A stretch of DNA of 64,000 nucleotides, taken from positions 30,562-94,561 of the forward strand of contig CAWDRY010000012.1 of assembly GCA_963804745.1 (NCBI GenBank), read 5' to 3'. How positions within the stretch are numbered: position 1 is the first letter of the stretch; each line of letters begins with the position of its first letter. Positions 3,026 to 29,109 of the stretch are shown here, one piece after another. This DNA comes from an uncultured Gemmataceae bacterium. Its GTDB lineage: Bacteria > Planctomycetota > Planctomycetia > Gemmatales > Gemmataceae. A model generated the notes under the pieces. The model did not search any database. It saw nothing but the letters and a program-made list of their open reading frames with translations, and was not told the origin of the DNA. A program made the translations under genes and the position numbers.

Positions 3026-5041
3026 ATGCGTAAACTGTTGAAGTCTCGTGGCAAGCGCTCTGGGCGATTCTCCTTACCGGCACGGTTGCGGGCTTTTCTC
3101 CGCGTGGAGGAGCTGGAATCACGGACGCTTCCTTCAACTACGCAAATCTTTCCCATGGTGGCTGACCATGTTACTCCACTAGCCCGCACTGTCAACTTGG
3201 GGCCTTATAAGCCCGCGCAGATCACGAGTGCCTATGGCTTCAACCAGCAAACCAACACCGGTGCCGGTCAGACCATCGCCATCGTCGATGCCTTCGACGA
3301 TCCCACCATTGCTTCCGACCTGCAGACCTTCAACAATTACTTCACCCCGCCCCTGCCCACCTCGACATTCATCAAGGTGAATCAGAACGGCAACACCAGT
3401 TCCTTACCGCCGCCAGCGCCGGCCAATGACGACTGGACGCTTGAAGTTTCCCTCGACGTGGAATGGGCGCACGTTGTTGCTCCCGGTGCGAACATCGTGC
3501 TGGTGGAAGCCACCTCGGACAGCTGGAGCGATATGATGACGGCCGTTAACACCGCCGCCAATCCTGCCACTTACGCCACTCTTGGGCCGCAGAATAGTAG
3601 TATACCGGCTGCTTCGGTCGTGTCGATGAGCTGGGGCGGCAGTGAGTTTACCACCACAACCACCAGAACGAGAACTGGCACGATCACGTATCCGGGCGAG
3701 ACTACCTACGATAGTATCTTTGCGGCCTATCCCAATGTCACCTTCGTGGCCTCCTCCGGCGATGACGGCGCGCCGCCCATATGGCCCGCTGTCTCGCCCT
3801 ACGTCGTTGGCGTTGGCGGCACTAGGCTCACAGTGACGAACAATACCTACGGTGGTGAAACAGGCTGGAGCGACAGCGGCGGCGGCGTCAGCAAGTACGA
3901 ACCCATGCCGTCGTATCAGAGCGTGGTTGCGCCACAGTTTCAGACCGGCACCAAAACGGCCAACCTGAAGCGAACCAGCCCCGACGTGGCCTACAATGCC
4001 GACCCGAACTCAGGCGTATACGTTCTCGACAACTATGACGGCGGCTGGTGGGAGGTCGGCGGAACCAGCGCCGGCGCACCGCAGTGGGCCGGCTTGTTCG
4101 CTGATGTTAACCAACTGCGTGCATCGCCCATCGGCAGCGCCGCTCTCCCTGCTCTCTACAGCCTGACAGGCGTCACCAAAACAACCACCAACACCACCGA
4201 TTTCCACGACATCACGTCCGGCAACAATGGCTACGCGGCTAAGACGGGCTACGATCTTGTCACCGGCTTGGGCAGCCCGATTGCCAACGGCCCGACTGTA
4301 AACGGGATTGCCACCCCCGGGATTATCTCGGCCCTGGCGGCTTCCAACGCCTCACATCTCGCACTCGCCACAAGCACCCAGGCGCCGGCAACCACCACCA
4401 CGTCGTCACGGGACGGTGACCGGTGGTCGCACTCTGTGGACATCCGCACGCTCGTAAATGATCCCAGCTTGATGAACGCCCTTCTTTCCGGCACGAACAG
4501 CACAGGCCCGTGGCACATCGTTCCGGTCTACTTCGTGGCCCAGCCGGCCCCTGTTACCAACCTCAGCAACGGCCCGGCTGTCACCACTATTCAAAGTCCT
4601 CTCCCAACCAGCAGAACAGCCGTCCCGGTTCCTCTCAGCCTGTTGTCCAGCAGTATTGAGAGCAAAACGGACCTTCCCGACGACGCGGATGCCATCGACC
4701 CGATGCAAGATCAGAGCATGTTGCTCGTGCCGGACGCTGTGGCTCCTGCGCCGCTGCCAGCGAGCCTCCGGGTTGAACCCGGAGGAGGCTCGCCGGCCCC
4801 TGTTTTGTCGCAAGACCAGGCCGTGGATGCGTGTTTCGCACATTCACTCTGGTCGGACGGACAGATTCCTTCCAGCCTGTCTCGGTCCACGGACGCAGCA
4901 CCGGCATCGACCGTTGAGCAAACCAGCACCCCGGCCAGTCGCTCAGCGGCTTCGGCGGCGTTGTTCGTCATGCTCGGTGCCGTGTGGACTTCGTCGGCCA
5001 GGGATAACAAATCTCGCGTCCGCCGCTGGAACTGGCGGTGA
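3026..5041 (+). CDS. secreted S53 (sedolisin/kumamolisin-like) serine-carboxyl peptidase with long Pro/Ser/Thr/Ala-rich C-terminal region and hydrophobic+basic C-terminal tail
   Basis: AIVDAFDDPT, SSGDDGA, GGTSAGAPQWAG (S53 catalytic Ser motif); N-terminus RLRAFLRVEELESRTLPS Planctomycete-type leader; C-term LFVMLGAVWTSSARDNKSRVRRWNWR. Confidence 0.8.
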   Translation: MRKLLKSRGKRSGRFSLPARLRAFLRVEELESRTLPSTTQIFPMVADHVTPLARTVNLGPYKPAQITSAYGFNQQTNTGAGQTIAIVDAFDDPTIASDLQTFNNYFTPPLPTSTFIKVNQNGNTSSLPPPAPANDDWTLEVSLDVEWAHVVAPGANIVLVEATSDSWSDMMTAVNTAANPATYATLGPQNSSIPAASVVSMSWGGSEFTTTTTRTRTGTITYPGETTYDSIFAAYPNVTFVASSGDDGAPPIWPAVSPYVVGVGGTRLTVTNNTYGGETGWSDSGGGVSKYEPMPSYQSVVAPQFQTGTKTANLKRTSPDVAYNADPNSGVYVLDNYDGGWWEVGGTSAGAPQWAGLFADVNQLRASPIGSAALPALYSLTGVTKTTTNTTDFHDITSGNNGYAAKTGYDLVTGLGSPIANGPTVNGIATPGIISALAASNASHLALATSTQAPATTTTSSRDGDRWSHSVDIRTLVNDPSLMNALLSGTNSTGPWHIVPVYFVAQPAPVTNLSNGPAVTTIQSPLPTSRTAVPVPLSLLSSSIESKTDLPDDADAIDPMQDQSMLLVPDAVAPAPLPASLRVEPGGGSPAPVLSQDQAVDACFAHSLWSDGQIPSSLSRSTDAAPASTVEQTSTPASRSAASAALFVMLGAVWTSSARDNKSRVRRWNWR

Positions 5042-5071
5042 TGGTGAGCGGCCGCGCGCGCTGAATCTTAA

Positions 5072-5177
5072 GGCGAGTGGCAAGTGATACCTCCCTCGCT
5101 GACGCTTCGGGCCAATGTCACACTGGCCCGAAGCGTCAGCGAGGAATGGTAAATTGTTATCCGCCGCTCGTCTAATG
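5072..5177. repeat. ~105-bp palindromic MITE/REP-like element, copy A (ends X-left, Y-right; more diverged)
   Basis: ggcgagtggcaagtgatacctccctcgctgacgcttcgggcca...tggcccgaagcgtcagcgaggaatggtaaattgttatccgccgctcg. Confidence 0.8.
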
Positions 5178-5323
5178 TTAACTTCTCGCCCTTCTTCCCT
5201 CTCCATCTTTCCCGCTCTTTCCCCATCCTCCCGAAGTGTCCAGGCGAACCAAAACTGATACCTCTCTCAAACACCCTGATTTCTTTGCCGAAAGAACTTC
5301 CACTTTTCTTGCATCTGTGTTAT

Positions 5324-5425
5324 GGCGTGCGGCAAGTGATACCATCCCTCGCTCACGCTTCGGGCTAGTCTCACACTGGCCCGAAGCGTGAGCGAGGGAT
5401 GGTAAATCATCTTCTACCGCTCGCC
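5324..5425. repeat. palindromic MITE/REP-like element, copy B (X-left, Y-right)
   Basis: near-perfect long hairpin ggcgtgcggcaagtgataccatccctcgctcacgcttcgggc...gcccgaagcgtgagcgagggatggtaaatcatcttctaccgctcgcc. Confidence 0.85.
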
Positions 5426-5474
5426 TATCCGTGTAATCTGTGGTCAAAGGTCCAGGTTAAAGTTTTGTTTTCTC

Positions 5475-6569
5475 ATGAAATCTCACGATCACCCGCCGAG
5501 TGTTGTCTTGCGGTCCAGGCTATGCGTATTGTTGCTCGCCATCGCCCTCGTCGGGCTGACGGGTTGTCAGACGCTGCCTTCCGTTCGCCTTTGGAACCCC
5601 GTGGAAGTGCCTGCCGTTCGCGCTTGCGAGGTGCAACAGTTGCGCGACATCGTCTATTGCGACGGAGCGAAGGCAGATTCCTCTCGCCACCGTCTCGATC
5701 TGTATCTGCCCAGGGGAAGCAGGATTTCCCGGTCGTCGTGCTCGTTCACGGCGGCGCCTGGGTGATGGGCGACAATCGCTGTTGCGGGCTTTACACCAGC
5801 GTCGGGGAATATCTGGCCGGCCGGGGCATTGGCGTTGTCGTGCCCAACTACCGGTTGTCGCCGGGAGTGAAGCATCCCGAACATGTCAAGGACGTGGCCC
5901 GCGCGCTGGCCTGGACCCGGACTTTCATCGGCACCTTCGGCGGCTCGCCGGACAAGATCTTCCTCGCCGGCCATTCCGCCGGCGGGCATCTCGTCTCCCT
6001 GCTGGCGACGGATGATACCTACCTGAAGGCCGTGGGGCTGCGGACCCGCGACATCAAAGGCGTGATCTCAATCTGCGGCGTCTACCGCATTCCGGCGGGG
6101 AAGATGGAAGTCACCCTGGGCGGCGACAGCGAACGGGCCTTCCGGCTGAGCGAGATTTGTCCCATTCGCGGCACAGGCGATGCAGGCGGACCCAGGCCGG
6201 CCGTCTTGCCGGGCATTCCCGTGAGCCTCAACGTATTCGGCCCGGTTTTTGGCGAGGACCCGAAGGCGCGAGAGGCTGCCTCGCCCTTGAATTACGTTCG
6301 GCCCGGCCTGCCGCCGTTCCTTATTGTTTCGGCGGAGAATGACCTGCCCACTGTTGCAGGGATGGCGGAGGAGTTCCAGAAGGCCCTCGCGAAACAAGGG
6401 TGCGGGGCTTCAGCTCATCCGGATCGCGAATCGGAACCACAACAGCGTGATGTTCCGGGCGATTCAGGATGATGATCCGCTGGCCAGGGCGATGGTGGAG
6501 TTTGTCAGGCGGCGGAGCGGGGAAGAGCCGGGCGGAAGGAAACCGGGAGATGCGCGGGGCGGGCAGTGA
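5475..6569 (+). CDS. alpha/beta-hydrolase fold esterase/lipase (Abhydrolase_3-like) lipoprotein; two apparent frameshifts (~5715 in GGGG run, ~6405)
   Basis: signal peptide + lipobox LTGC; DLYLP...VVVLVHGGAWVMGD (HGG oxyanion motif), GHSAGGHL (GxSxG nucleophile elbow); C-terminus continues in ORF 6324..6569. Confidence 0.7.
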
Positions 6570-6593
6570 CGTCGCCACAGGACGATACAGTAA

Positions 6594-6700
6594 GGCGAGC
6601 GGCAGAAGATAATTTAGCATCCCTCGCTCACGCTTCTGGCCAGTGTGACACTGGCCCGAAGCGTGAGCGAGGGATGGTATCACTTGCCGCTCGCCTAATG
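6594..6700. repeat. palindromic MITE/REP-like element, copy C (Y-left, X-right; inverted relative to A/B), immediately 3' of the giant gene
   Basis: ggcgagcggcagaagataatttagcatccctcgctcacgcttctggccagtgtgacactggcccgaagcgtgagcgagggatggtatcacttgccgctcgcctaatg. Confidence 0.85.
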
Positions 6701-6705
6701 CCGCC

Positions 6706-9700
6706 TCATCTGTCCAGCCAAACATCATCGCTCGGCTGCCAGGCGCCGGCGCCAACCCTGAACAACTCCGATGAAACTTCAAGCCCGCTTGTGAGGATAG
6801 ACAGGGAGCCGGCATCGGCATCATCACCCATCTGCAACCACACCGAATCGCCCCGTTGATCCGCGCTCGGCGACTGCTCATCGCCGGGAACAGGCACCCC
6901 AACTCCCGCCGCTGGCCCGAAGAAGATCGAGGATAGAGGATGGAGAATGGAAGATAGAGGACGGCAAAGCGCTGGTTCCATCCTCAATCCTCCATTCTCC
7001 ATCCTCTCGCGCTGTGCAGGCTTGGCTGTCTCATCTCCCACGACCGCCACCGCAAGACCTGCGTTTGCCTGCACACCGGCTGCGACGGGAGACAGCACGT
7101 TAATGCACCCATCCAGCGCATCCCCCGCCGCATTGCTCGGCCGCGGTTCCAGATCGAACAGGAAATCATTCCCCTGCGCATCCGTCCCCCCCAACGCCGT
7201 CCATGCGCTCCCGGCATTCTGCATCAAGTTGATGATCGCCGCCCCCGCCGGCGCATCCGGCTTGACATGGAACGTAATCAGCGCCAGGCTGCCACCGGAC
7301 AACTCACCACTCACCACTCCACCACTCACCACTCCACCACTCACCACTCCACCACTCACCAGTCCGCGATACCCACTGATGTAAATAATCCCCGCCGCCC
7401 GGTCGACGTTGACCGTGAAGTTATCGAATGTCTGCGTCAGACTCCCCCGCACCACATCCCCCACCGAAACCACATCCACCCGGCTCGTGTCATAAGCAAT
7501 GACCAGATTCACCGAATCCAACCCAGCGAGCGGCGGGGTTGATCCCCGCCGTCCAGCCCCCGGGTCAAGATTCACCGGCACCACTACCTCCGCTTGCGGT
7601 TTCGCGCTGACCTCTGACCTCTGACCTCTGACCTCTGACCTCTGACCTCTGACCTCTGCCTGTCCGATACTCACCACCGGGTCCGGCCCCGTAACCCCCG
7701 GCGTCACCGCCGGCAGCACGGGAACGTTCGCCTGCGTAATCCCCACCGCTTCCCGTGCAATCTGCAAAGCATCCAACCCCGTCAGCACATTATCCCCGCT
7801 CACATCCCCGACGATGAGCGGATCAGCCAGCACCCACTGCCGAAACCCCGGATCAAGCCCGACCACCACACGCGAAATGCGCTGAGCATCAAGGCCGGTG
7901 TAAATTCCATCGCCGGTAACGTCGCCGAGGAAGCCCGAAACGTGAACGGCGGCGTCGTCCAGGGCGGTGATGCTGCCGCCGTTGATCTGAATGTTTTGCA
8001 AATCGAGGATTTCCTTCGCCCCATAACCCGCCGTGCTCGGCACCAACGCCGTCAATGTGGCAAAGATTGCCGATTCATTGTGACCAAGCACGATACCCGT
8101 TGGCGAGGAGTAAGTCACCACCGCCAGTCCCGGCGTAGCTACTCCACTCACTGTCAGCAGATTGGGATCATAAGCCAGGTTCAACGTTACCGAAGTAACG
8201 GTCACCGTCGCACTGCCCTCGTTCAATAACCTTACCGGAATTCCATCCGTCCCCTCCGTCCCATTCACCGCCTGCCCCGGCCCGCGCAAAGTCCGGCAAA
8301 CTAACAACCACCGCGTTGGGCGGGTTAATAACCACGAACGTGGTGACAAAATTATCCCCCGGCGTGCCGTCGCCGTTGCCGTCGAGCAAGTTGCCGTCAA
8401 CATCCTGGAACCCGTTGCTGGCACTGCGGAGTGTGACGGTATAGGTGCCGTCGGGCAGCACGCCAAACAGAGTTCCGGCAGCAGCACTACCGAGGACACC
8501 GCTCTGTCCGGTCTGGATGAAGGTGATGCGCTGCTGCCCTGCAACTGTATCGACGACCAGCGAGCCGCGAATTGGGCCGGCGCCGGTGCCGATGAGAGTG
8601 ACGTCTTCTGACCCCAGAGTGCCGGTCGAGTTGTCGTACAGGTTGAGCGAACTGGTGTCGAGTAGCCGGTCGAACACGGCCTCGAAGCCGGTGGCCGTGG
8701 GCGCAAAGGCAGTCACCCGTAACGTGGCTGCTTGGATTGACTGGATTAGCGGCGCGGACGTACTGCCCGGGAAGCCCGTGTCCCCGCCGTAGACCGCCGT
8801 GATCGAATGCCCGCCCACCGCCAGCCCGTTCGTGGTCCACGAAGCGTTGCCGCTACTGTCGAGCAGCCCTGTCCCCAGGCTCGTACTTCCGTCCATGAAC
8901 GTGACCGTGCCCGTAGGTGTACCGTCGCTGCTGCTGACCGTAGCCGTGAAGCCCACCGTTTGGCCCACCATCGCCGGATTGAGTGAAGACACCACGGTGG
9001 TCAAGGTTGATGGCAGGACCGTTATAAGCCCGTCGAGAGCATCACCGGCTGCATCGCTGGGCGCCGGTTGCAAGGTAAAATTGCCCAGGGCGGCGCCTGT
9101 CGCATCGCTGCCGTGCAGCACCGTCGTGGTCGTCTGCACGTGTTGCTGCAAGTTGATAATGGCTGCTCCCGGCAGCGCAGCCGCCTTGATGTGGAAATGA
9201 ATGATTGCCACACTGCCGCTGCCGAAACCGAAAATCGCGCCGGCCGACCGATAGGTACTCAGCCGAACCGTGCCCGCCGTATTGTCGTAATTGGCCACAA
9301 AGCCGTCAAACGTGCTGGTCAAGGTGCCCGGCTGAATGTCCCCCGCCGACAGGATTTCAAGCCGGCTGGTGTCGTAGGAGATGGCCAGATCGGCCTGCTC
9401 CAGGCTATCGGATCGATCCAGGTTTACCGGCACTGCGATGCTGCTACCGATTCCGCCGCTGAAGGTCGTGGGGATACTGATGGTAGCCACGGGCAATACG
9501 GTTTGCGTCAGGGCAACCGAGGTGCTGCCGGCGAAGTTCGTGTCGCCGCCGTAGACCGCGCTGATCGTATGCCGGCCGGGGGTCAGTGTCGTCGTGCTGA
9601 ACGTAGCCATGCTTCCCCTCTCCCCCTGGGAGAGGGGTAGGGGTGAGGGCGGCCGTGCCCAGCGGAATGCCGCCATCCTGGAACGTCAGCACCCCGCTCG

Positions 9701-12700
9701 GCCACTGACCACTGACCACCGACCACTGACTACCGACCACGGCAGTGAAAGTGATTGCCTGGCCCGCCGCCGCTGGATTGAGCGACGAAGTCGCGACAGT
9801 GCTCGTGCTCGCCTGATCGACGGTCTCGTACACGGCAGCCGAAGTGCTCCCCAAGGAATTGACATCGCCGCCATAAACACTCCTCAACACGTGCTGGCCG
9901 ACACTAAGACTGCTGACCGCAAAGATGGCTGTCCCGCTAGTGTCCAGCGTCCCATAACACAATACCGTGCTGCCATCCAGGAACGTCACGCTGCCTGTTG
10001 GAATGATGCCTACACTCCCGTTCACGGTCGTTGTGAAACTCGCGCTTTGGCCGAAGATAGAAGTGTTGACAGATGGGAAGGCCGTGGTGATGGTCGTTTG
10101 CTGGATCGCTTGAATCAAGGCCGCCGAGGTGTTGCCGAGGAAGTTGCCGTCCCCGCCGTACACCACCGTGATGCTGTAACTATCAACAGCCAGGACAGTA
10201 CTCAGATGGAAGGTGGCGATGCCAGCGTTCAGCGTCACCGTGCTCCTGCCTGGCAGCGGGTCCCCATCCCCCAGGAAGGTGACCGTGCCTGTCGGCGTGC
10301 CAGCACCCGGAGAGGCGGCACTTATGGTGGCGGTAAACGTGATGGATCGACCAAAGCCGGATGGGTTGACCGGCGATGTCAGAGTCACGGTAGTGCTGGC
10401 TGGGTTGACTGTTTGAGGTAGTGGATTCGACGTGCTCCAGCCCAGGTTCGTATCGCCGCCGTAGATCGCCGTTAGGGTGTGGGCCCCTGCCGACAGTGTT
10501 GCGGTGCTGAAGCTGGCCGTGTCGCCGCCAACGGCAACGGTGCCGATGGAAGTGCTGCCGTCCATGAACGTCATTGTCCCCGTTGGCGTGCCCGCCCCGG
10601 GTGTACTGGCAGCAATCGTGGCCGTGAATGTCACGCTCTGACCGTAAAGGGATGGATTTACCGGCGAAGTCACGGCTGTGGTCGTGGTGGCCTTGGCTTG
10701 AATGACCGTTTGCACCGTGCTGCCGCTGCTGCTGTTGAAGTTTGCATCCCCGCCGTAAGTCGCTGTGATGCTGTGTACACCCACGGCCAATGAGGACGTC
10801 GCATAGGTCGCCATCCCACCACTCAGGGTAACTACACCGCCGGATAGCACAGCCCGTTCTCCATGAATGTCACTGTGCCGGTCGGCGTGCCGGTGCCCGG
10901 ACTGACGGCGCTCACCGTTGCCGTAAAGGTCACGCTCTGGCCGAGGACCGACTGATTGGCCGGCGCACTGACCGTGGTGCTCGTGCCGGCCTGGTTGACC
11001 GTCTGCAAGAAGTCGCCCAACGTGCTGTCGTTGAAGTATCTGTCGCCGCCGTAGATAGCAGTGATGGTGTGCGTCGCCACCGTCAGGCTGCTGGATGTGA
11101 ACGTCGCCGTGCCGCCTTGCCCCTCTCCCCCTGGGAGAGGGGTTGGGGTGAGGGTACCCGTACCGATGGAGCTGCCGCCCTCCTCGAACGTGACCGTACC
11201 TGTCGGTGCCCCCCCGCCGGGACTGACGGGACTGACCGTGGCCGTGAACGTCACCGGCTGGCCGAATACCGATGGGTTGACTGACGAGGTCACTGTCGTG
11301 GTTGTGGCTGTCTGTGCGGGCACTTGTGTCTGGTAGGCGCCGATGTCGGGGTTGCGGATTGGCCGGGGCTGGCCGCGCTGGTCGGTCGTGAGGCCGTTTT
11401 GCGCCGGCACCGATGGCGGGACTGCCCGGCAGCAAGGCCATCGTCGCTGTCGGCCCTCCATTGTTTGCCAGAGGACCAAGCAAGGGATCAATCGCGTTCG
11501 GGTCGGAGCCGGTCACCCCAACTTGATTGTGGTTGCCATCACCGTTCCTGATGCCAGTCAGGCCGGTGCCGTCGCCGATCAGGTTATAGGCGCGTAGCGC
11601 TGGTGACGCTGCCGGCAATGTCCGGATCACTGATGGTCACTGTGTTGCCGGCCACAATGGTGCTGAGCAGCGTTACCGTATCCGAATTGCCGATGCCGCC
11701 GCCATACGCAGCAGAGTTGCCGGCCAGGGTAGAGTTGCTCACCGTCACCGTGCCAGCGGCATTGAAAATGCCGCCGCCGTCCCATACGGCGGAGTTGTCG
11801 GCGAGGGTACAGTTGCTCACCGCCCCCGTGCCATTGTTGTAGATGCCGCCGCCGTAGCCGTGGGCGGCGTTACCGTAGAGGGTGCTGTTGCTCACCATCA
11901 CCGTGCCACCGAGATCGTTGCAGATGCCGCCGCCGCTCCCTTGGGCGGAGTTGCCGGACAGAGTGCAGGTGCTCACCGTCACCGGGCCATTCCTGTTGTA
12001 AATGCCGCCGCCGCTCCCTTGGGCGGAGTTGCCGGACAGAGTGCAGGTGCTCACCGTCAGCGTGCTCCAATTCCAGTAGTTGCCTACATCGATGCCGCCG
12101 CCGCTACTTTGGGCGGAGTTGCCGGAGAGAATACAGTTGCTCACCGTCACCGGGCCACCGTAGCTGAAGATGCCGCCGCCGCCGCCGCCGCCGCCCCAAT
12201 AATTAGGATAAGCGCTGTTGCCGGAGAGGGTGCAGTTGCTCACCGTCAGCGGGCCATAATTGCAGATGCCGCCGCCATTGCCGCCGTTGGATGCGGAGTT
12301 GCCGGAGAGGATGCAGTTGCTCACCGTCAGCGTGTTCCAGTTGGCCATGTCGATGCCGCCGCCATCGCCGTTGAATGCGGAGTTGCCGGACAGGGTGCAG
12401 GTGCTCACCGTCACCGGGCCACTGTTGTTGTAGATGCCGCCGCCGCTGTATGCGGAGTTGCCGGACAGGGTGCAGGTGCTCACCGTCAGCGGGCTATTGT
12501 TGTAGATGCCGCCGCCGTTGCCGTTGGAGGCGGAGTTGCCGGAGAACATGCAGTTGCTCACCGTCACCGGGCCACCGTTGTTGTAGATGCCGCCGCCGTT
12601 GTAGTATGCGGAGTTGCTGGACAGGGTGGTGTTGCTCACCGTCACCGTGCCATAATTGCAGATGCCGCCGCCGTAGGATGCAGAGTTGCCCGACAGGGTG

Positions 12701-15700
12701 GTGTTGCTCACCCACAGCATGCCACTATTGTAGATGCCGCCGCCGTAGGATGCGGAGTTGCCCGACAGGGTGGTGTTGCTCACCCACAGCATACCACTAT
12801 TGTAGATGCCGCCGCCGTAGGATGCGGAGTTGTCGGACAGGCTGCAATTGCTCACCGTCAGCGTGCCATTGTTGAGGATGCCGCCGCCTGCACCGGGGGT
12901 GGATCCATTGCTGATGGTCAGGTTTTCCAGGGTGGCGGTGGTGTTCGCTGCCACCGTGAAGAGCAAGGAGTTCCACCCGCGGCCGCCGCCCTGGATGGTC
13001 AAAGCGGCTGTCGGGCCAGCAATGATGATCGACGCGCCGAGGGTGGCGTTGTCGAGGTTCAGTGCGCCTGCGGGCGCGATCGTCTGCGGCGTGGCGAAAA
13101 CCACGGGGTCGAAGGAAATGGTGAAGAGGCCGCCGTTGCCGTCGTTGTCCGCCTGGGCCACCGCATAGGACAGGCTGCCTGGTCCCGAGCTATTGATGTT
13201 CGTAACGATGTAGTAACCGGGGACCGCCGGGGCGATAGTGAACGACTGATCGACGGGGGCGGCGGCGCTGTAGTCGATGCTGCCCGCCTGCACCGCCACG
13301 ACGGTGACCACCGTCCCTGCCGGCGTGGCGCCGAGGATGGTGATTGTGTTGCCGGAGATGCTGGCATACTGCCCGCCCGCCACAATGCGGAAGCTGACCG
13401 CCAGGCCCGAGCTGGCGCTGGCGCTCACCGTAAACGGTGCGTTGCCATAGATCTGGTTGGCCAGCGGCCCGAAGCTGATCGTCTGCCTGACCGCGGTCTG
13501 ATAGGCGCCGATGTCCGGGCTGCCGGCCGGCCGGGGCTGGCCGCGCTGGTCGGTGGTGATGCCGTTAACGATCTCGCCGGCGCCGATTGCAGGGCTGCCC
13601 GGCAGCAAGGCCATCGTAGCCGTCGGCCCGCTGTTATTTTGCAAAGGGCCAAGCAGGGGATCGATCGGGTTGGGGTCTGAGCCGGTCACCCCGACTTGAT
13701 TGTGGTTGCCATCGCCGTTGCTGATGCCGGACAGGCCGGTGCCGTCGCCGATAAGGTTATAGGCACTGCTTCCCGTGATGATGCCGTAAATGTCCGGCTC
13801 ACTGACGGTGTTGCCCGCCACGATGGTACTGAACAATGTCACCGTCCCGGCGGCAGTGCCGATGCCGCCGCCGTTACCTTGGGCGGTGTTGCCGGACAGC
13901 GTGGAGCTGCTTACCGTCACCGTGCCGTCTTGGTTCCAAATGCCGCCGCCGTTACCCTGGACGGAGTTGCCGGCGACGGTGCAGTTGCTCACCGCCAGCG
14001 TGCCGTCGTTCCAAAGGCCGCCGCCGTTACCCTGGGCCGAGTTGCCGGCGACGGTGCAATTGCTCACCGCCAGCGTGCCGTCGTTCCAGATGCCGCCGCC
14101 GCTGCTGCTCGTGTACCCATTACTGATGGTCAGGTTTTCCAGGGTCGCGGTTGTGTTCGCGGCCACCGTGAAGACCGAGAAGTTCGACCCGCTGCCGCCG
14201 CCCAGGATGGTCAGAGCAGACTGCCGGGCCGGCAATGAGCACCGAAACGCCGGGCGTGCTGTTGTCGAGGTTCAGCGTGCCTGCCAACGTTATCGTCTGC
14301 GCCGTGGCGAAAACCGTTGCATCGAAGTTGATGGTGAAGAGTTCCCCCCTGGTGTCGTTGTCCGCCTGTTCGACCGCGTAAGGCAGGCTGCCGAGCACCG
14401 TGCTGTCGTTGCTGGTATTGGTGACGGTGTAGGCCGGTGTCTGATAGGCGCCGATGTCGGGATGGCTGCTTGACCGAGCATGGCCGCACTGGTCGGTCGT
14501 GAGGCCGTTTTGCGCCGGCGCCGATGGCGGGACTGCCCGGCAGCAAGGCCATCGTCGCCGTCGGCCCACCATTGTTTGCCAGAGGACCAAGCAGGGGATC
14601 TATCGGGTTCGGGTCTGAGCCGGTCACCCCAACTTGATTGTGGTTGCCATCGCCGTTGCTGATGCCGGTCAGGCCGGTGCCGTCGCCGATCAGGTTATAG
14701 GCGCGAGCGCTGGTGACGCTGCCGGCAATGTCCGGATCACTGATGGTCACTGTGTTGCCGGCCACAATGGTGCTGAGCAGCGTTACCGTATCCGAATTGC
14801 CGATGCCGCCGCCATACGCAGCAGAGTTGCCGGCCAGGGTAGAGTTGCTCACCGTCACCGTGCCAGCGGCATTGAAAATGCCGCCGCCGTCCCATACGGC
14901 GGAGTTGTCGGCAAGGGTACAGTTGCTCACCGCCCCCGTGCCATTGTTGTAGATGCCGCCGCCGTAGCCGTGGGCGGCGTTACCGTAGAGGGTGCTGTTG
15001 CTCACCATCACCGTGCCACCGAGATCGTTGCAGATGCCGCCGCCGCTCCCTTGGGCGGAGTTGCCGGACAGAGTGCAGGTGCTCACCGTCACCGGGCCAT
15101 TCCTGTTGTAAATGCCGCCGCCGCTCCCTTGGGCGGAGTTGCCGGACAGAGTGCAGGTGCTCACCGTCAGCGTGCTCCAATTCCAGTAGTTGCCTACATC
15201 AATGCCGCCGCCGCTACTTTGGGCGGAGTTGCCGGAGAGAATACAGTTGCTCACCGTCACCGGGCCACCGTAGCTGAAGATGCCGCCGCCGCCGCCGCCG
15301 CCGCCCCAATAATTAGGATAGGCGCTGTTGCCGGAGAGGGTGCAGTTGCTCACCGTCAGCGGGCCATAATTGCAGATGCCGCCGCCATTGCCGCCGTTGG
15401 ATGCGGAGTTGCCGGAGAGGATGCAGTTGCTCACCGTCAGCGTGTTCCAGTTGGCCATGTCGATGCCGCCGCCATCGCCGTTGAATGCGGAGTTGCCGGA
15501 CAGGGTGCAGGTGCTCACCGTCAGCGGGCCACTGTTGTTGTAGATGCCGCCGCCGCTGTATGCGGAGTTGCCGGACAGGGTGCAGGTGCTCACCGTCAGC
15601 GGGCTATTGTTGTAGATGCCGCCGCCGTTGCCGTTGGAGGCGGAGTTGCCGGAGAACATGCAGTTGCTCACCGTCACCGGGCCACCGTTGTTGTAGATGC

Positions 15701-18700
15701 CGCCGCCGTTGTAGTATGCGGAGTTGCTGGACAGGGTGGTGTTGCTCACCGTCACCGTGCCATAATTGCAGATGCCGCCGCCGTAGGATGCAGAGTTGCC
15801 CGACAGGGTGGTGTTGCTCACCCACAGCATGCCACTATTGTAGATGCCGCCGCCGTAGGATGCGGAGTTGCCCGACAGGGTGGTGTTGCTCACCCACAGC
15901 ATACCACTATTGTAGATGCCGCCGCCGTAGGATGCGGAGTTGTCGGACAGGCTGCAATTGCTCACCGTCAGCGTGCCATTGTTGAGGATGCCGCCGCCTG
16001 CACCGGGGGTGGATCCATTGCTGATGGTCAGGTTTTCCAGGGTGGCGGTGGTGTTCGCTGCCACCATGAAGACCGAGGAGTTCCACCCGTGGCCGCCGCC
16101 CTGGATGGTCAAAGCGGCTGTCGGGCCAGCAATGATGATCGACGCGCCGAGGGTGGAGTTGTTGAGGTTCAGTACGCCTGCGGGCGCGATTGTCTGCGGC
16201 GTGGCGAAAATCACGGGGTCGAAGGAAATGGTGAAGAGGCCGCCGTTGCCGTCGTTGTCCGCCTGGGCCACCGCATAGGACAGGCTGCCTGGTCCCGAGC
16301 TATTGATGTTCGTAACGATGTAGTAACCGGGGACCGCCGGGGCGATAGTGAACGACTGATCGACGGGGGCGGCGGCGCTGTAGTCGATGCTGCCCGCCTG
16401 CACCGCCACGACGGTGACCACCGTCCCTGCCGGCGTGGCGCCGAGGATGGTGATTGTGTTGCCGGAGATGCTGGCATACTGCCCGCCCACCACAATGCTG
16501 AAGCTGACCGGCAGGCCCGAGCTGGCGCTGGCGCTCACCGTAAACGGTGCATTGCCGTAGGTCTGGTTGGCCAGCGGCCCGAAGCTGATCGTCTGGTTGG
16601 TCTCGCTCTGGTAGGCGCCGATGTCGGGGTTGCCGGCCGGCCGGGGCTGGCCGCGCTGGTCGGTGGTGTTGCCGGCAACGACCTTGCCGGCACCGATCGC
16701 AGGGCTGCCCGGCAGCAAGGCCATCGTAGCCGTCGGCCCGCTGTTATTTTGCAAAGGGCCAAGCAGGGGATCGATCGGGTTGGGGTCTGAGCCGGTCACC
16801 CCGACTTGATTGTGGTTGCCATCGCCGTTGCTGATGCCGGACAGGCCGGTGCCGTCGCCGATAAGGTTATAGGCACTGCTGCCCGTGATGATGCCGTAAA
16901 TGTCCGGCTCACTGACGGTGTTGCCCGCCACGATGGTACTGAACAATGTCACCGTCCCGGCGGCAGTGCCGATGCCGCCGCCGTTACCTTGGGCGGTGTT
17001 GCCGGACAGCGTGGAGCTGCTTACCGTCACCGTGCCGTCTTGGTTCCAAATGCCGCCGCCGTTACCCTGGACGGAGTTGCCGGCGACGGTGCAGTTGCTC
17101 ACCGCCAGCGTGCCGTCGTTCCAAAGGCCGCCGCCGTTACCCTGGGCCGAGTTGCCGGCGACGGTGCAATTGCTCACCGCCAGCGTGCCGTCGTTCCAGA
17201 TGCCGCCGCCGTTGCTGCTCGTATGCCCGTTGCTGATGGTCAGGTTTTCCAGGGTGGCGGTTGTGTTCATGGCCACCGTGAAGACCGAGAAGTTCGACCC
17301 GCTACCGCCGCCCAGGATGGTCAGAGCAACTGCCGGGCCGGCAATGAGGACCGAAGCGCCGGGCGTGCTGTTGTCGAGGTTTAGCGTGCCTGCCAGCGCG
17401 ATCGTCTGCGCTGTGGCGAAAACCGTTGCATCGAAGTTGATGGTGAAGAGTTCCCCCCTGGTGTCGTTGTCCGCCTGTTCGACCGCGTAAGGCAGGCTGC
17501 CGAGCACCGTGCTGTCGTTGCTGGTATTGGTGACGGTGTAGGCCGGTGTCTGATAGGCGCCGATGTCGGGATGGCTGCTTGACCGAGCATGGCCGCACTG
17601 GTCGGTCGTGAGGCCGTTTTGCGCCGGCGCCGATGGCGGGACTGCCCGGCAGCAAGGCCATCGTCGCCGTCGGCCCACCATTGTTTGCCAGAGGACCAAG
17701 CAGGGGATCGATCGGGTTCGGGTCTGAGCCGGTCACCCCAACTTGATTGTGGTTGCCATCGCCGTTGCTGATGCCGGCCAGGCCGGTGCTGTCGCCGATC
17801 AGGTTATAGGCGCTATTGCTGGTGACGCTGCCGGCAATGTCCGGATCACTGATGGTCACTGTGTTGCCGGCCACAATGGTGCTGAGCAGCGTTACCGTAT
17901 CCGAATTGCCGATGCCGCCGCCATACGCAGCAGAGTTGCCGGCCAGGGTAGAGTTGCTCACCGTCACCGTGCCAGCGGCATTGAAAATGCCGCCGCCGTC
18001 CCATACGGCGGAGTTGTCGGCGAGGGTACAGTTGCTCACCGCCCCCGTGCCATTGTTGTAGATGCCGCCGCCGTAGCCGTGGGCGGCGTTACCGTAGAGG
18101 GTGCTGTTGCTCACCATCACCGTGCCACCGAGATCGTTGCAGATGCCGCCGCCGCTCCCTTGGGCGGAGTTGCCGGACAGAGTGCAGGTGCTCACCGTCA
18201 CCGGGCCATTCCTGTTGTAAATGCCGCCGCCGCTCCCTTGGGCGGAGTTGCCGGACAGAGTGCAGGTGCTCACCGTCAGCGTGCTCCAATTCCAGTAGTT
18301 GCCTACATCGATGCCGCCGCCGCTACTTTGGGCGGAGTTGCCGGAGAGAATACAGTTGCTCACCGTCACCGGGCCACCGTAGCTGAAGATGCCGCCGCCG
18401 CCGCCGCCGCCCCAATAATTAGGATAAGCGCTGTTGCCGGAGAGGGTGCAGTTGCTCACCGTCAGCGGGCCATAATTGCAGATGCCGCCGCCATTGCCGC
18501 CGTTGGATGCGGAGTTGCCGGAGAGGATGCAGTTGCTCACCGTCAGCGTGTTCCAGTTGGCCATGTCGATGCCGCCGCCATCGCCGTTGAATGCGGAGTT
18601 GCCGGACAGGGTGCAGGTGCTCACCGTCACCGGGCCACTGTTGTTGTAGATGCCGCCGCCGCTGTATGCGGAGTTGCCGGACAGGGTGCAGGTGCTCACC

Positions 18701-21630
18701 GTCAGCGGGCTATTGTTGTAGATGCCGCCGCCGTTGCCGTTGGAGGCGGAGTTGCCGGAGAACATGCAGTTGCTCACCGTCACCGGGCCACCGTTGTTGT
18801 AGATGCCGCCGCCGTTGTAGTATGCGGAGTTGCTGGACAGGGTGGTGTTGCTCACCGTCACCGTGCCATAATTGCAGATGCCGCCGCCGTAGGATGCAGA
18901 GTTGCCCGACAGGGTGGTGTTGCTCACCCACAGCATGCCACTATTGTAGATGCCGCCGCCGTAGGATGCGGAGTTGCCCGACAGGGTGGTGTTGCTCACC
19001 CACAGCATACCACTATTGTAGATGCCGCCGCCGTAGGATGCGGAGTTGTCGGACAGGCTGCAATTGCTCACCGTCAGCGTGCCATTGTTGAGGATGCCGC
19101 CGCCTGCACCGGGGGTGGATCCATTGCTGATGGTCAGGTTTTCCAGGGTGGCGGTGGTGTTCGCTGCCACCATGAAGACCGAGGAGTTCCACCCGTGGCC
19201 GCCGCCCTGGATGGTCAAAGCGGCTGTCGGGCCAGCAATGATGATCGACGCGCCGAGGGTGGAGTTGTTGAGGTTCAGTACGCCTGCGGGCGCGATTGTC
19301 TGCGGCGTGGCGAAAATCACGGGGTCGAAGAAAATGGTGAACGGGCCGCTGCTGGTGTTGTTGTCTGCCTGGGCCAGCGCATAGGGCAGGCTGCCGATCA
19401 CCGTGTTGTCGTTGCTGGTATTGGTGACAGTGTAGAACTGGGCCTGGCTGACCATTTGCACAAAGCTGCCGCTGCTGCTTACACAATTGCCGTCGCCGCC
19501 GTAGACTGCCGTTATCGTGTGGTAGCCGGCCGTCAAGCTGCTGGTCATGAATGTGGCCGTGCCGTTGCTGTCCAGAGTGACCATGCCGTTGCTCAGTGGG
19601 AAGCCCCCGTCCTCGAACATGACCGTGCCCGTCGGCGTGCCGGCGCCCGGCGAGGTGACACTGACCGTGGCGGTAAAGCTCACACTCTGCCCGAACACCG
19701 AGGGACTGGCAGATGAAGTCACCGTTGTCGTCGTGCTCGCCGGGTTCACGGTCTGGGTGAGAGTGTCTGAGGTGCTGGCCGTGAAGTTGCCGTCGCCGCC
19801 GTAAGTCGCCGTGATCGTATGAACGCCAACGGTAAACATAGACGTGGCGAAGGTGGCCGCTACCCCGCCGCTGACTGCTCCCGTGCCCACGGAGGTGCCG
19901 CCGTCCTGGAACGTCACTATCCCCGTCGGCCACTGGCCACTGACCACTGACCACTGACCACTGCATGTGGCCGTGAAAGTCACGCCCTGGCCGAACACCA
20001 ACGGGTTGGTCGAAGAATTCACCGTGGTGGTGGTGCTCGCCTGGTTGACGGTCTGGACGGTGCTGCCGCTGCTGACGCAGTAGGTGCTGTCGCCGCCGTA
20101 GCTGGCCGTGACGGTGTGGGTGCCGGCACTCAGAGTCGAGATGGGGAAGGAAGCAGTGGCAATGGCGCCGCTGCCGCTCAATGTGCTTTGCCCAAGCGAC
20201 GTGCTGCCGTCGCTGAAGGTCACCGTGCCGCTAGGCGTCTCGGACTGGTTCCCGGTGACGGTGGCGCTGAATGTGACAACATCGCCTAAGATTGACGTAC
20301 TGGAAGACGATGTCACCGTGGTGGTAGCGGTGCCGCCCGTGACGGTCTGTAGGAAGGTGCCCGAGGCGGGGCTGGCGCTGAAGTTGGTGTCGCCGCCGTA
20401 GCTGGCCGTGATGGTATGCGTGCCAATCGACAGCGCCGTGGTCGAGAACGTCGCCGTGGTGCCGCTGATCGAACTCGTGCCGATGGAGCTGCCGCCGTCG
20501 CTGAAGGTCACCGTGCCGGTTGCGCCGGTGGGCGAACTGTGGACCGTGGCCATGAACGTCACCGTCGAGCCGTAGACTGGGGAACTGGGCGTCGCCGCCG
20601 TCACCGTGGTCGTGGTGCTCGCCTGGTTGACGGTCTGGAGGAAGGTGCCGGTGGTGCTGCTGGCGGCGTAGTTGGTCCCGCCGCCGTAGGTCGCGGTGAG
20701 CGAGTGGGTGCCGGCGGCCAGGCTGCTGGTCGTAAATGTGGCGATGCCGCGGCCGGTGCCGCTGCCGTCGTCGGTCACATTGGCGAATCCCAGGGTGGTG
20801 GCGCCGTCCATAAACATCACGCCGCCGTCGATCGTGTTGCTGGCGCCGCCTTGCACGGTTGCGGTGATGGTCACAGGCTCGCCGAAGGCCGTCGGTCCCG
20901 ACGAAGTCACGGTGGTGGTCGATGCGATCGTTCCGGGAGTCAGCACGATCAGGGTGCCGTCCACCACGTCACCGGCGGTATCGTTGGGAGGGGGATCCAG
21001 CGTGTACACATCCCCTGAGCTAATGCCATATGCCTTCGTGGGAAGGCTTTGGTTGAGGGACAGCGGGACGCTCGCTCGCAAGTTGATGATACTGTGCCCT
21101 GCAGACTGCAGGTTGGTAAAGGCAATGTCCAGCAGATCGATGGTTTGATCCGAATTGTCCAAACCGGTGAAAGAAAATGCGTCGACGGCGATTGTGCCTA
21201 CTAGACCCGGCAACAGAGTATTGTTGGGGACGATGTTCCCGGCGTAAGTGAACCCGGGGGACAGCGGTTCCTTGAAAGCTACTGCCTGTTCGTTCGAGAC
21301 AGTTGTCGCCACAAACAGCTGCGTGGGATCGTAACTCATGGCGATGTCAAACTCGCCCAGGGTAGCCGCGCCGATGGCGGCCAAGCCCACGCTGACAGGC
21401 ACTGTTTGGAACTGAAAAGCATGGAACGGTCGGACGGCGACAAACATTTCTCCCGTTGACGACGGCGTGAGGCGCTCCTCGAACGGCTCGACGGACAGCC
21501 AGCAGCGCCGGCGCTCGGTCTTGCGGCGGCCGCGATGCTTGCGCCAGCGCCTCCAGGACCAAGTGTTCAATTCGACCATTTGCACCAGGTTTTGCCACCA
21601 ACGAAAAAATGTCATAATGCGGCTCCTCAA
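6706..21630 (-). CDS. giant (~4,900 aa if contiguous) secreted adhesin-like protein fragmented into 6 overlapping ORFs by frameshifts: N-terminal Planctomycete leader, 3 cohesin-like modules, dockerin-like repeats, many Big_3-like Ig domains, PbH1 parallel beta-helix repeat arrays, choice-of-anchor-Q-like domains
   Basis: ORFs 17302..21630, 14211..17699, 11584..14235, 9444..11630, 8168..9676, 6706..8706 all minus strand, overlapping, with domain continuity; N-term ...RRRCWLSVEPFEERLTPS; SGNSAxxGGGIYN repeats; YNLIGDGTGLxGISNGDGNHNQVGVTGSDPNPIDPLLGPLxNNxGPTATMALLPGSPAIGAG; GDVSGDNVLTGLDALQIAREAVG dockerin-like; AISYDTSRLEILSAGDIQPG cohesin-like. Confidence 0.6.
7302..7370. repeat. in-frame SSR (CACCACTCACCACTC)x4 within giant gene, encodes (GVVSG)n
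   Basis: read directly; same GGTGAGT/ACTCACC heptamer family as intergenic palindromes. Confidence 0.8.
7606..7652. repeat. in-frame SSR (GACCTCT)x6.5 within giant gene
   Basis: read directly: ctgacctctgacctctgacctctgacctctgacctctgcc. Confidence 0.8.
11335..19440. repeat. near-identical tandem duplication, unit ~3106-3110 bp, ~2.6 copies (boundaries ~11335/14445/17554/19440) inside the giant gene
   Basis: spurious +strand ORFs recur at 11603/14713/17822, 12375/15485/18591 etc. with identical translations; offsets 3110, 3109, 3106. Confidence 0.85.
12171..12194. repeat. (GCC)8 trinucleotide SSR encoding poly-Gly in beta-helix module; copies at 15282-15305 (x8) and 18391-18411 (x7)
   Basis: read directly; copy 3 is one unit shorter. 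Confidence 0.8.
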
Positions 21631-26045: not shown

Positions 26046-26280
26046 TGCAAGTACCCAACTTCGCTGACCTTACGGCCACTGCACATCATCCAGCCACGCC
26101 GGAACTTTCATCTCACCCTCAAAGCCTGGGGACATGCAATGAGAAATACATTGTGCCGCACTCTCCTGCCTAACATCCTCCTCACAACCAAGTTGGACAA
26201 ATAGATTCTTCACCTTTATCCTTCAGGTTGGGCGAGCCGAGCAGCGTAAGCTGCCGGGTGATGAACCCCATCATCTACTC

Positions 26281-27539
26281 ATGAAAGGCATTCCCATGGA
26301 CCCCATCACCATCCGTTACACCTTCCGTCCACGCCAGCGCAGCCTGGCAACCGGCCGGGTTGCCGACCTGTTCGGCGTCGATTTCGACGAGCCGCCGCAT
26401 CTTGTTGCCGACAACGTGCTACTCGACATCCGGCCCGGCGATCTCGTGCTGTTCACCGGCCCGTCCGGCAGCGGCAAATCATCGCTGCTCCGCGCCGCCG
26501 GCAAGCAACTCGGCGCCTTCGACGCCGCCTCTCTCTCCTTGCCGGACCTGCCGCTCGTCGATTGCCTGTCCGGCTCGCTGGAAGAACGGCTCGCCAAACT
26601 CTCGGCATGCGGTCTTTCCGAAGCCCGCCTGCTCCTGCGCAGCCCCGACGAACTCTCCGACGGCCAACGCTACCGTTTCCGCCTCGCCTACGCCCTGGAC
26701 CAACTGCCCACTGCCCACTGCCAACTCCCCACTGACCACTCCCCACTCACCACTCCTCACTTCCTGATGGCCGACGAGTTTGCCGCCTTTCTGGACCGCA
26801 CTCTGGCAAAGGTCCTGGCCTTCAATGTCCGCAAGTTGTGCTCGCGCAGCGGTGTCAGTTTCCTGCTGGCGACCACGCACGACGATCTGCTCGACGACCT
26901 CAATCCCGACGTGTGCGTGTACTGCCACGGCGACGGGCAGGTGGCATGTCAGCGGCGCGACGTAAAAAAAAAGACATCTCGTTTGTGCATGACCTTTGGC
27001 TGTCGGAAGGCGCCCGCGCCGATTGGCCGTACTTCGCTCGGTGGCATTACCGCAGCCATCAGCTCGCCTACGTCCGCCGGATCGTCCTGCTCTGGCACGG
27101 CGACGAGCCGATCGGCATCTGCGTCTTTAGCGCCGGCGGCGGCGCTGAAACTGCGGACTCGCTATTTTGGTCTTCACAATCCCCATTCGAGCCTGCACCT
27201 CTCGGCCCTCAATCGGCAACTCTGGCTGCTGTTGCGCGTCGTCCTGCATCCCACCTATCGCGGTGCGGGGATTGCGACGGCCTTTGTGCGGCGGGCGTGT
27301 GCGACGTGTCCGGTGGACTGGATCGAGACGCTGTCGGCGATGGGGCAGGTCAATCCTTTCTTCGAGCGCACGGCTTTACGCGCGTCGGCGTCATTCGCAG
27401 AGAGCGAAAGAATAACCGGGGCCGGTCGTATGGCGCGATCTACGGCGGGCACGATGTGCGTGTCAGCGCCGAGACGGTCCGGAAGAGCCGGTACAGCGAG
27501 CCGGTGTATTATGTGATGGATAATCGGCAGAAAGGATGA
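26281..27539 (+). CDS. soluble ABC-type ATPase domain fused to C-terminal GNAT-like acetyltransferase domain; frame broken at least three times (A9 run at 26964-26972, ~27150, ~27370)
   Basis: Walker A GPSGSGKSS, signature LSDGQRYRFRLAYAL, Walker B LMADEFAAFLD, H-loop LATTHD; GNAT motif A RVVLHPTYRGAGIATAFVRRA and motif B NPFFERAGFTRVG in alternating frames; embedded heptamer SSR 26700-26760. Confidence 0.55.
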
Positions 27540-28399: not shown

Positions 28400-28562
28400 C
28401 AGATATTATAAGAGATTTACCTGGAGCGATCAAAGAGTCTTCAAGGGCTATTTCATTTCCGCCGCGAATTGTATATTATTGAAGTACAGCGGCGGTCAGG
28501 TTTCCGGAGTGTCGCCCGGAGGGGCCGCCGCGTAACGCCTCCTTACCTGGAGCCGCACCCTG

Positions 28563-28955: not shown

Positions 28956-28968
28956 CCCGACTTGAAAG

Positions 28969-29081: not shown

Positions 29082-29109
29082 CGTACTGATTTGCTGAAAG
29101 AGCCTGACG

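Follow-up and report, generated by a model that had tools for sequence, protein, structure and literature searches.

The window analyzed here, a 64,000-nt stretch of contig CAWDRY010000012.1 from an uncultured Gemmataceae bacterium (Planctomycetota), contains four full copies (A, B, C, and E) of an oriented, hairpin-forming repeat, and we consider this family very probably a dispersed, non-autonomous mobile repeat. Its arms form an inverted doublet of a short repetitive extragenic palindromic (REP) unit similar to those reported beside class-3 HUH-Y1 genes, and the doublet sits within terminal inverted repeats that are themselves flanked by 3-bp direct repeats. On balance, we lean toward a lineage-specific element of the miniature inverted-repeat transposable element (MITE) type, i.e., a class-3-type REP doublet enclosed in a shell that carries a 3-bp duplication. 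The full copies are listed below, with X and Y denoting the two unlike ends described in the next section.

Copy A: 5072–5172, (−) strand, X end left; the most diverged, 84–87% identical to the other full copies
Copy B: 5324–5425, (−) strand, X end left; 92–93% identical to C and E
Copy C: 6594–6695, (+) strand, Y end left; perfect 11-bp terminal inverted repeats (GGCGAGCGGCA/TGCCGCTCGCC)
Copy E: 62214–62315, (+) strand, Y end left; inner arm pair of 32 nt perfect, identity to C 95%

Sequence inspection and repeat detection recovered every copy that a first-pass annotation of the window had named, at the positions it gave. Repeat detection grouped 5059–5172, 5312–5425, 6587–6700, and 62207–62320 into one family, with pairwise identities of 84–95% among A, B, C, and E (102 aligned columns), inverted matches of 82–110 nt between full copies, and perfect or near-perfect arm pairs of 30–32 nt inside each. 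The core 16-mer occurs 10 times in the window (1.2 expected), a 23-mer with up to three mismatches occurs 10 times compared with none in 100 shuffles, and core matches number 13 in 64 kb against an expectation of 0.45, a count that applies to the window. Folded as single-stranded DNA, copies A, B, C, and E reach −37.4, −50.0, −53.5, and −52.6 kcal/mol, respectively, compared with approximately −15 kcal/mol for shuffled sequences; the corresponding z-scores are −9.2, −15.0, −14.1, and −13.8, and none of 200 shuffles folded equally well. When the four copies are aligned, pairing holds for 95.7% of the 163 stem cells, in comparison to 36–39% when the partner is slid by one to three columns. The near-perfect hairpins reported earlier are therefore real (z of −9 to −15), while their length of ~105 bp needed correction, since the element proper (GGCGAG...CTCGCC) spans 101–102 bp.

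The 200-nt flanks on each side have nothing in common, save where those of A and B overlap within one spacer, and similarity between copies ends a few bases past the element ends. Because the flanks are unrelated, the full copies are not parts of one larger duplicated segment, a possibility that the first-pass annotation had raised. The elements are small (below the ~500-bp limit for MITEs) and have no coding capacity; the small open reading frames (ORFs) that they create, which had already been called spurious, are read-through artifacts only.

Anatomy of the element

We read the element from its Y end to its X end, which places C and E on the (+) strand and A and B on the (−) strand and bears out the earlier observation that the two pairs face opposite ways. 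In this direction, it consists of the following parts.

Left terminal repeat: 11 nt, GGCGAGCGGCA
Y loop: 10 nt, GAAGATAATT
Left arm: 32 nt, TACCATCCCTCGCTCACGCTTCGGGCCAGTGT
Center: 1 nt, one base
Right arm: 32 nt, ACACTGGCCCGAAGCGTGAGCGAGGGATGGTA
X loop: 5 nt, TCACT
Right terminal repeat: 11 nt, TGCCGCTCGCC

Over the four copies, 90.9% of the cells in the terminal repeats are paired. The arms are an inverted pair, placed foot to foot, of the 26-nt unit ACACTGG-CCC-GAA-GC-GTNA-GC-GA-GGG, which folds into a mini-hairpin: a 3-bp stem, then a G/A internal loop, then a 2-bp stem that ends in a GYNA tetraloop; copy A has GTCA in both REP loops and one arm that is short by 1 nt. Because the Y loop (10 nt) and the X loop (5 nt) are unequal, the palindrome is oriented, and each copy indeed has one X-type and one Y-type end, as had been noticed. 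By repeat detection, folding, and stem pairing, each copy is an inverted REP doublet within one hairpin, the arrangement that characterizes REPs and REP doublets forming hairpins (REPINs). Both halves of the original MITE/REP-like label for this oriented, asymmetric palindrome consequently hold, the first through the terminal and flanking repeats and the second through arms made of a class-3-type REP doublet.

Flanking 3-bp direct repeats

Each full copy is bordered by the same trinucleotide on both sides (read on the (+) strand).

Copy A: TAA at 5069–5071 and TAA at 5173–5175
Copy B: TAT at 5321–5323 and TAT at 5426–5428
Copy C: TAA at 6591–6593 and TAA at 6696–6698
Copy E: TAA at 62211–62213 and TAA at 62316–62318

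In element orientation, the flanks become TTA/TTA for A, ATA/ATA for B, and TAA/TAA for both C and E, so that all four copies match and do so with three different values. The flanks are direct rather than inverted repeats at six of six discriminating positions; an extension of the palindrome would need complementary bases. At the spacing of the element, the chance of a 3-mer match is 0.0165 per random site in the window. Judged from the sequence, the 3-bp flanks look like a putative target-site duplication, and a signature of this kind, the lack of which was to have counted against an element, is present in all four full copies. All copies had also been described as flanked by taaggcgag...ctcgcctaatg; the terminal GGCGAG...CTCGCC is correct, and the taa is the flanking direct repeat outside the element, which in copy B reads tat...tat. 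Transposition of the IS200/IS605 and REP-associated tyrosine transposase (RAYT; HUH-Y1) kind is not known to make target duplications. Ends that start with GG together with a 3-bp A/T-rich duplication are reminiscent of some IS5-family subgroups and of PIF/Harbinger-Tourist MITEs.

Relation of the core unit to class-3 REPs

Class-3 HUH-Y1 proteins form a small class found mainly in Planctomycetes, Acidobacteria, and Proteobacteria, and on either side of the genes lie weak hairpins of an atypical kind with the 5′ foot CnGA, of which Solibacter carries ~600 copies (Quentin et al. 2018, PMC6006769). For Planctopirus limnophila ADG69454.1, the hairpins CACGAGCCGGAAGCGTGAGCGACGGGT and ACGAGCCGGAAGCGTCAGCGACGGGCATTT are tabulated (Table S1 of PMC6006769). 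The window unit CACTGGCCCGAAGCGTGAGCGAGGGAT is identical to CACGAGCCGGAAGCGTGAGCGACGGGT at 22 of 27 positions, and two of the five differences make up a compensatory G:C to C:G stem change, while the single units of the window (see below) agree with ACGAGCCGGAAGCGTCAGCGACGGGCATTT at 21 of 26 positions and have T:A at the varying stem pair and the canonical foot CCGA. The varying stem pair is thus G:C in P. limnophila, C:G in the window family, and T:A in the single units. Class-3 hairpins of Legionella pneumophila and Solibacter usitatus are built on the same plan, i.e., stem, GA, 2-bp stem, GTNA, 2-bp stem, GA, and stem. With regard to the foot CnGA, CCGA occurs in two single units and CCGA or CGGA at some other Planctomycetota loci, and the four full copies have ACTG. 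In the literature, the motif is described only in PMC6006769, and a DNA-string search gave unrelated primer matches only. Because of the sequence match and the shared hairpin plan, we take the core to be a member of the class-3 REP-like group; we do not extend this to the whole element, given the ACTGG foot of the full copies and given that no class-3 gene was found in the window or the fetched loci.

Distribution of the core across Planctomycetota and viruses

A scan of one genome per species with the 19-base core GGCCCGAAGCGTNAGCGAGG as the query found at least 29 genome loci that carry it, 22 of which, among the matches listed, belong to Planctomycetota (Pirellulales, Gemmataceae, Planctomycetaceae, and Phycisphaerae), mostly with an inverted partner 10–30 nt away. 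Of the seven loci from outside the phylum among the matches listed, six are single matches without an inverted partner and look like chance; four of these six lie inside long ORFs. The seventh (L025, 466–532), in a metagenome-assembled genome (MAG) binned as Alcaligenaceae, is a perfect REP doublet that has CCGA, the canonical foot, and represents either a mis-binned Planctomycetota contig or horizontal transfer. Free variation within the core is limited to the third base of the loop (GTAA, GTGA, GTCA, and GTTA; also GCAA and GCCA), and a relative with 67% G+C carries the form CCC-G[A/C]A-GC-GCCA-GC-[G/A]A-GGG.

The core is also present in 20 IMG/VR viral contigs, where single units are oriented with the genes (L047, L048, L049, L050, L051, L058, and L060). 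For eight of 22 single viral units, an ORF with coding-like G+C content at third codon positions starts ≤60 nt downstream in sense, compared with none in antisense, and the terminal GAGG of viral units is often found 1–11 nt before an ATG, in the manner of a ribosome-binding site. Head-to-tail tandem units with a period of ~28–29 nt were seen as well, five in the viral contig L046 (439–568) and two in the Pirellulales MAG locus L024 (653–746).

Conversely, the parts peculiar to the family matched nowhere else: the X-end 20-mer gave nothing but chance matches, in coding DNA of JGI metagenomes, the whole element had no match in plasmids or phages, and the foot-to-foot center and end pattern had none in viral contigs. 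Since these parts were confined to the family and the core occurs in many Planctomycetota, we conclude that the shell is lineage specific and the core phylum-wide. Two related arrangements were observed in other genomes. The Pirellulales MAG SMAG_U4204 (L002, 95–275; L003, 3425–3600; and L024, 585–790) has a composite of its own, in which outer inverted repeats (CCGCATTATTCATC) enclose a head-to-head REP doublet. This composite also has an extra, asymmetric segment, and its flanks (CTAA/CTAA, CTAA/CTAA, and CGAG/CTAG) may reflect either a preferred target or a target duplication of 4 bp (YTAR type). In a Planctomycetaceae MAG (L020, 2180–4110), a cluster of five REP units separates and flanks a reverse-transcriptase-like ORF (YMDD) and an adjacent ORF that appears HRDC-like by eye only.

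Further members of the family in the window

In addition to the full copies, the window contains a diverged copy, a composite palindrome with a REP doublet at its center, and two single units.

Copy F (diverged, one-ended): 35724–35806, (−) strand, in the ybaB-recR spacer; −33.4 kcal/mol, z −6.6
Composite palindrome: 27532–27709, no strand assigned, 178 bp; −75.4 kcal/mol, z −15.7
Head-to-head REP doublet: 27580–27637, no strand assigned, GTTA loops, feet outward; −28.6 kcal/mol, z −9.2
Single REP unit: 30173–30198, (+) strand, TCCGAG-CCT-GAA-GC-GTCA-GC-GA-AGA-G; class-3 foot CCGA
Single REP unit: 41345–41370, (+) strand, TCCGAG-CCT-GAA-GC-GTAA-GC-GA-AGA-G

Copy F, which was absent from the list in the first-pass annotation, is an inverted doublet of the variant unit CCC-GAA-CGC-GCAA-GCG-A-GGG, in which the mini-hairpin and the tetraloop are kept in other sequence. 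Its Y-type 10-nt loop is identical to that of the main family at 7 of 10 positions, and one terminal repeat (TGCCGCTCGCC) is present and followed by TTA, with the other terminal repeat absent. Where copy F is present, i.e., in the window and in a close relative (L030, see below), the ybaB-recR spacer measures 145–149 nt, compared with 66, 13, and 3 nt in relatives that share ~80% RecR identity; because the spacer is so much shorter in these more distant relatives, we regard copy F as an insertion in this lineage. In a 9.3-Mb relative (L043, 9935–10000), the same spacer holds a different, perfect palindrome of ~50 nt (TAGCCCCCGGCTTGCCGGGGG...), and the spacer therefore attracts unrelated palindromes in different lineages.

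The rearranged core that had been noted inside a composite palindrome at 27520–27712 is real and corresponds to the head-to-head doublet. The outer arms of the composite are (AAGGATG)n/(CATCCTT)n heptamer repeats, with the doublet at the center, and they also enclose a second small hairpin at 27644–27673 (CTCGTTCCCAC-GGTCCGC-CGTGGGAACGAG), the loop and adjoining stem base of which are inverted in L030, i.e., a flip of the palindrome center. The two half-fragments reported at ~30170–30205 and ~41340–41372 also exist, although they are better described as single units (30173–30198 and 41345–41370) with a different 5′ foot, CCGAG. The former is found where a gene remnant has its stop codon, within a 540-bp segment (29757–30296) that is missing from L030, which has 32 bp there; the remnant, apparently the C-terminal part of a membrane protein, ends exactly at the REP unit. 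The latter occupies a 33-nt junction between 42-bp direct repeats (41293–41334 and 41368–41409; 41 of 42 positions identical, 75-bp period). We rejected 41293–41409 as an in-frame gene disruption, given that deleting one repeat and the insert restores no long ORF.

Turnover of intergenic palindromes in a close relative

The ENA contig L030 encodes a RecR homologue with 98% identity, and its DNA is 96–97% identical to window positions 26173–39491. Copy F and the composite palindrome are both conserved there, and because L030 is an independent assembly, neither of them is an assembly artifact. Each arm of copy F has a 1-nt length change in L030, and the arms still pair. Two head-to-head REP doublets are specific to L030: one in the center of an irregular palindrome, at the site where the window has a heptamer palindrome (38275–38364) without a doublet, and another at a homology break after a Band_7 gene. 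The head-to-head doublets of the window and L030 have no consistent flanking repeat, which fits a different, HUH-like mode of insertion with a preference for hairpin loops.

A second, separate class of intergenic repeats is built from heptamers in tandem, (7-mer)n, in most cases with a loop and then the reverse-complement (7-mer)n after it; the heptamer varies by locus and in some cases recurs. Repeat detection placed such repeats, which are far commoner than expected in the window, at the following positions.

Heptamer repeats, first part: 6921–7006, 7302–7365, 7607–7658, 9702–9740, 19930–19963, 26703–26761, 27532–27709
Heptamer repeats, second part: 28967–29079, 31038–31149, 38093–38130, 38279–38363, 39159–39256, 43538–43561

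We know of no family to which they belong. Between the window and L030, i.e., between strains that are ~96–97% identical, heptamer palindromes are polymorphic for presence and absence: the 113-bp palindrome at 28967–29079, a 93% copy of 31052–31147, is precisely absent from L030 with no duplication; an 86-bp (TCAGAGR)n palindrome lies directly after recR in L030 (window 35071–35076) and is missing from the window; and the two strains carry different palindromes at the site 38275–38364. A huge repetitive gene region on the (−) strand (9444–21630), with units of 72–78 bp, a 3.1-kb super-repeat present three times, and several long ORFs, probably encodes a giant secreted repeat protein, and a 21-bp tandem repeat of 14.9 copies (97% matches) lies in a long ORF at 56303–56615.

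Genomic setting and effect on neighboring genes

Copies A and B stand in tandem in one spacer, with an S53 peptidase gene on one side and a frameshifted esterase gene on the other, copy C lies between the convergent esterase and cohesin/dockerin-like genes, copy E is upstream of an MFS transporter gene, and the composite palindrome separates convergent ATPase and PIN genes. The copies are thus intergenic, as first described; their reported proximity to secreted or accessory genes applies only in part, with copy F located inside the housekeeping ybaB-recR operon. The esterase (alpha/beta-hydrolase, 5475–6569) needs two frame changes, and dnaX, rpoN, and oxidoreductase genes are also split, which suggests indel errors in a long-read consensus or pseudogenes.

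Differences between copies are mostly one-sided and break pairs, with a single two-sided change, at the free loop base of copy A; of 500 shuffles, 104 did no worse. Because the changes are mostly uncompensated, we regard the long hairpin as inherited from a palindromic master and decaying in the way of MITEs and REPINs, and the four-copy comparison does not support selection on the long hairpin of the kind that maintains RNA structures. A role as an intrinsic terminator was rejected as well, as no T-run follows any copy and 4900–6900 contains no terminator-like site (1.8 expected). Rfam returned no match at the gathering threshold in the window and only generic miRNA-hairpin models far below it.

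Proposed origin and alternative explanations

According to the reading that we favor, the whole 102-bp unit would owe its insertion to an enzyme whose staggered cut, 3 bp wide, falls on an A/T-rich trinucleotide and leaves a target duplication of that length, and the element would behave as a MITE that depends on a DDE-type transposase supplied in trans from another part of the genome; we infer an enzyme of this type because of the 3-bp duplication signature, which HUH/RAYT enzymes are not known to produce. The REP doublet at the core would derive from a phylum-wide repeat system, most likely made and spread by class-3 HUH-Y1 (TnpA/RAYT-like) enzymes acting on single-stranded DNA, and this system may preferentially settle in loops of palindromes that are already present. 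Once inserted, the copies would decay through ordinary point mutation, and any effects on neighboring genes, whether through hairpins at the 3′ or 5′ ends of transcripts or through spurious ORFs, would be secondary.

Several points weigh against this reading. The duplication is seen in four copies, three of which have TAA on the (+) strand, and a strong target preference plus chance could still account for it. No empty site was found for A, B, C, or E, and their neighboring genes have no ortholog recorded in the close relative (the next-best matches to the S53 peptidase and the MFS transporter are 47% and 74% identical, respectively). Given the assembly frameshifts, e.g., in the esterase, single-base differences between copies may be errors. 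The full copies carry ACTGG and not the class-3 foot CnGA, and the link to a class-3 enzyme is drawn from one published supplementary table, with no such gene in the present data. Specifically, no HUH-Y1 gene was found in the window or the fetched loci by an HUH...Y regular expression in six frames, by tblastn with approximate IS608 TnpA and E. coli RayT sequences, or by Pfam on ~50 window ORFs; the one regular-expression candidate, in viral contig L062, is not a Y1 protein. Similarly, we found no insertion sequence with GGCGAGCGGCA termini, and within the window the end motif occurs only in the elements.

A cognate transposase, whether of the IS200/IS605 type that the first-pass annotation had envisaged or of a DDE type giving 3-bp duplications, was thus not found within the window. 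The only transposase there is an IS66-family ORF (24139–25923, (−) strand; DDE_Tnp_IS66, E-value of 3.6e-54), inside or beside which contig L030 ends. It was rejected as the parent, having no recognizable inverted repeats and no similarity to the element ends; the IS66 family is known to make 8-bp duplications. A 36-bp repeat at 39524–39624 (2.8 copies), the unit of which starts with GGCGAGCGGCG, resembles the terminal repeat of the element, probably by coincidence.

The evidence must also be weighed against explanations that dispense with a MITE shell. In one of these, the whole hairpin is a REPIN, i.e., a REP doublet moved as single-stranded DNA by a class-3 HUH-Y1 (RAYT-like) enzyme, with the GGCGAGCGGCA stems as an extension of the hairpin and the flanks as a TAA-like target preference. 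We think this possible although rather unlikely. It would account for the 22-of-27 match to a published class-3 REP with its compensatory change, for a phylum-wide motif that usually occurs in inverted pairs, for doublets that nest in hairpin loops and vary between close strains, and for in situ tandem multiplication in L024 and L046, as in clusters of REPs or bacterial interspersed mosaic elements (BIMEs); the three of four flanks that read TAA on the (+) strand agree with it as well. However, within each copy the trinucleotide on the left changes together with that on the right (TTA, ATA, TAA, and TAA), whereas HUH-Y1 transposition is not known to duplicate its target, the full copies lack the CnGA foot, and neither the window nor any fetched locus has a Y1 gene.

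A structure selected by the host, such as a bidirectional terminator, an mRNA-stabilizing hairpin, or a protein-binding site copied between spacers by recombination, appears quite improbable to us. All copies are intergenic, with C and the composite palindrome (27532–27709) between convergent genes and F within an operon; the 19-nt core is conserved across the phylum with only the third loop base free; viral units favor positions upstream of sense ORFs and often place GAGG shortly before ATG; and the arm-length changes in copy F between strains keep pairing. Nevertheless, T-tracts, terminators, and Rfam families are lacking, with the miRNA-hairpin models below threshold, changes between copies are mostly uncompensated, E is in a divergent or upstream position, A and B are doubled in one spacer, and copy-specific 3-bp direct repeats are unexpected from recombination. 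The remaining alternative, an artifact in the form of a larger duplicated block or of long-read fold-back errors, could appeal to the two frame changes in the esterase, which are typical of long-read consensus errors; it is nonetheless refuted, and we give it next to no weight, as similarity is lost a few bases from the ends of the element in otherwise unrelated flanks, copy F and the composite palindrome recur base for base in the independent L030 assembly from another sample, and the core recurs in dozens of unrelated assemblies.

As to the 19-nt core itself (CCCGAAGCGTNAGCGAGG), a more speculative proposal, which we hold to be improbable, is that it is more than selfish DNA and acts as a strand-specific functional hairpin across Planctomycetota and their phages, either as a site recognized by domesticated class-3 HUH enzymes or as an RNA leader or ribosome-binding module; the window would then show a two-tier system, with HUH-type REP doublets transported inside DDE-type MITE shells.

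The hairpins generate spurious ORF calls and mark intergenic sites with fast turnover between ~96–97%-identical strains, and those who annotate Planctomycetota MAGs should therefore mask them. They also link a barely described repeat system, previously known only from hairpins beside class-3 HUH-Y1 genes in one supplementary table, with a motif found throughout the phylum and in its phages. The nested structure suggests that two modes of mobilization, by single-strand HUH and by staggered-cut enzymes, can act on one palindrome, and if the 3-bp duplication is true, the family would offer a clean test case for hybridization between REP-type and MITE-type elements.

Comparison with known systems

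Like palindrome-associated transposable elements (PATEs) and other miniatures derived from IS200/IS605, the window element has HUH-type subterminal hairpins and no transposase gene; however, PATEs have two hairpins in direct orientation on one strand and no duplication, whereas the window units are inverted and bordered by flanking repeats. With bacterial MITEs (Correia/CREE, ERIC, and RUP) and those of the Tourist type (IS5/PIF-Harbinger superfamily), which make 3-bp TWA duplications, it shares a length of ~100 bp, a full-length hairpin, terminal inverted repeats that start with GG, 3-bp A/T-rich flanking direct repeats (TAA/TTA), dispersed intergenic positions, and small spurious ORFs. It differs from them in the flank of copy B, which is TAT/ATA and not TWA, in that no parent insertion sequence with the same ends was identified, and in its body, a REP doublet that is also found in elements lacking a duplication.

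As far as REPINs and BIMEs, inverted REP doublets served by a RAYT, are portrayed in the reports that cite their description (Bertels & Rainey 2011, cited in PMC3733652 and PMC6006769), the window element resembles them in being an inverted doublet of a short REP within one long hairpin, non-coding, intergenic, and multi-copy, and in being a lineage-specific variant of a wider motif. Measured against the same accounts, it has no GTAG/GTGG tag, the foot being ACTGG in full copies and CCGAG in single units, and it has in addition an apparent 3-bp target-site duplication, of a kind not known from REPINs, a shell of terminal repeats, and an asymmetric internal loop. The closest likeness in the core unit is to class-3 REPs, with which it shares the GC stem, the G/A internal loop, the 2-bp stem, the GTNA loop, the phylum, and the intergenic location; unlike class-3 REPs, the window units are packed foot to foot into extra terminal inverted repeats with 3-bp flanking repeats.

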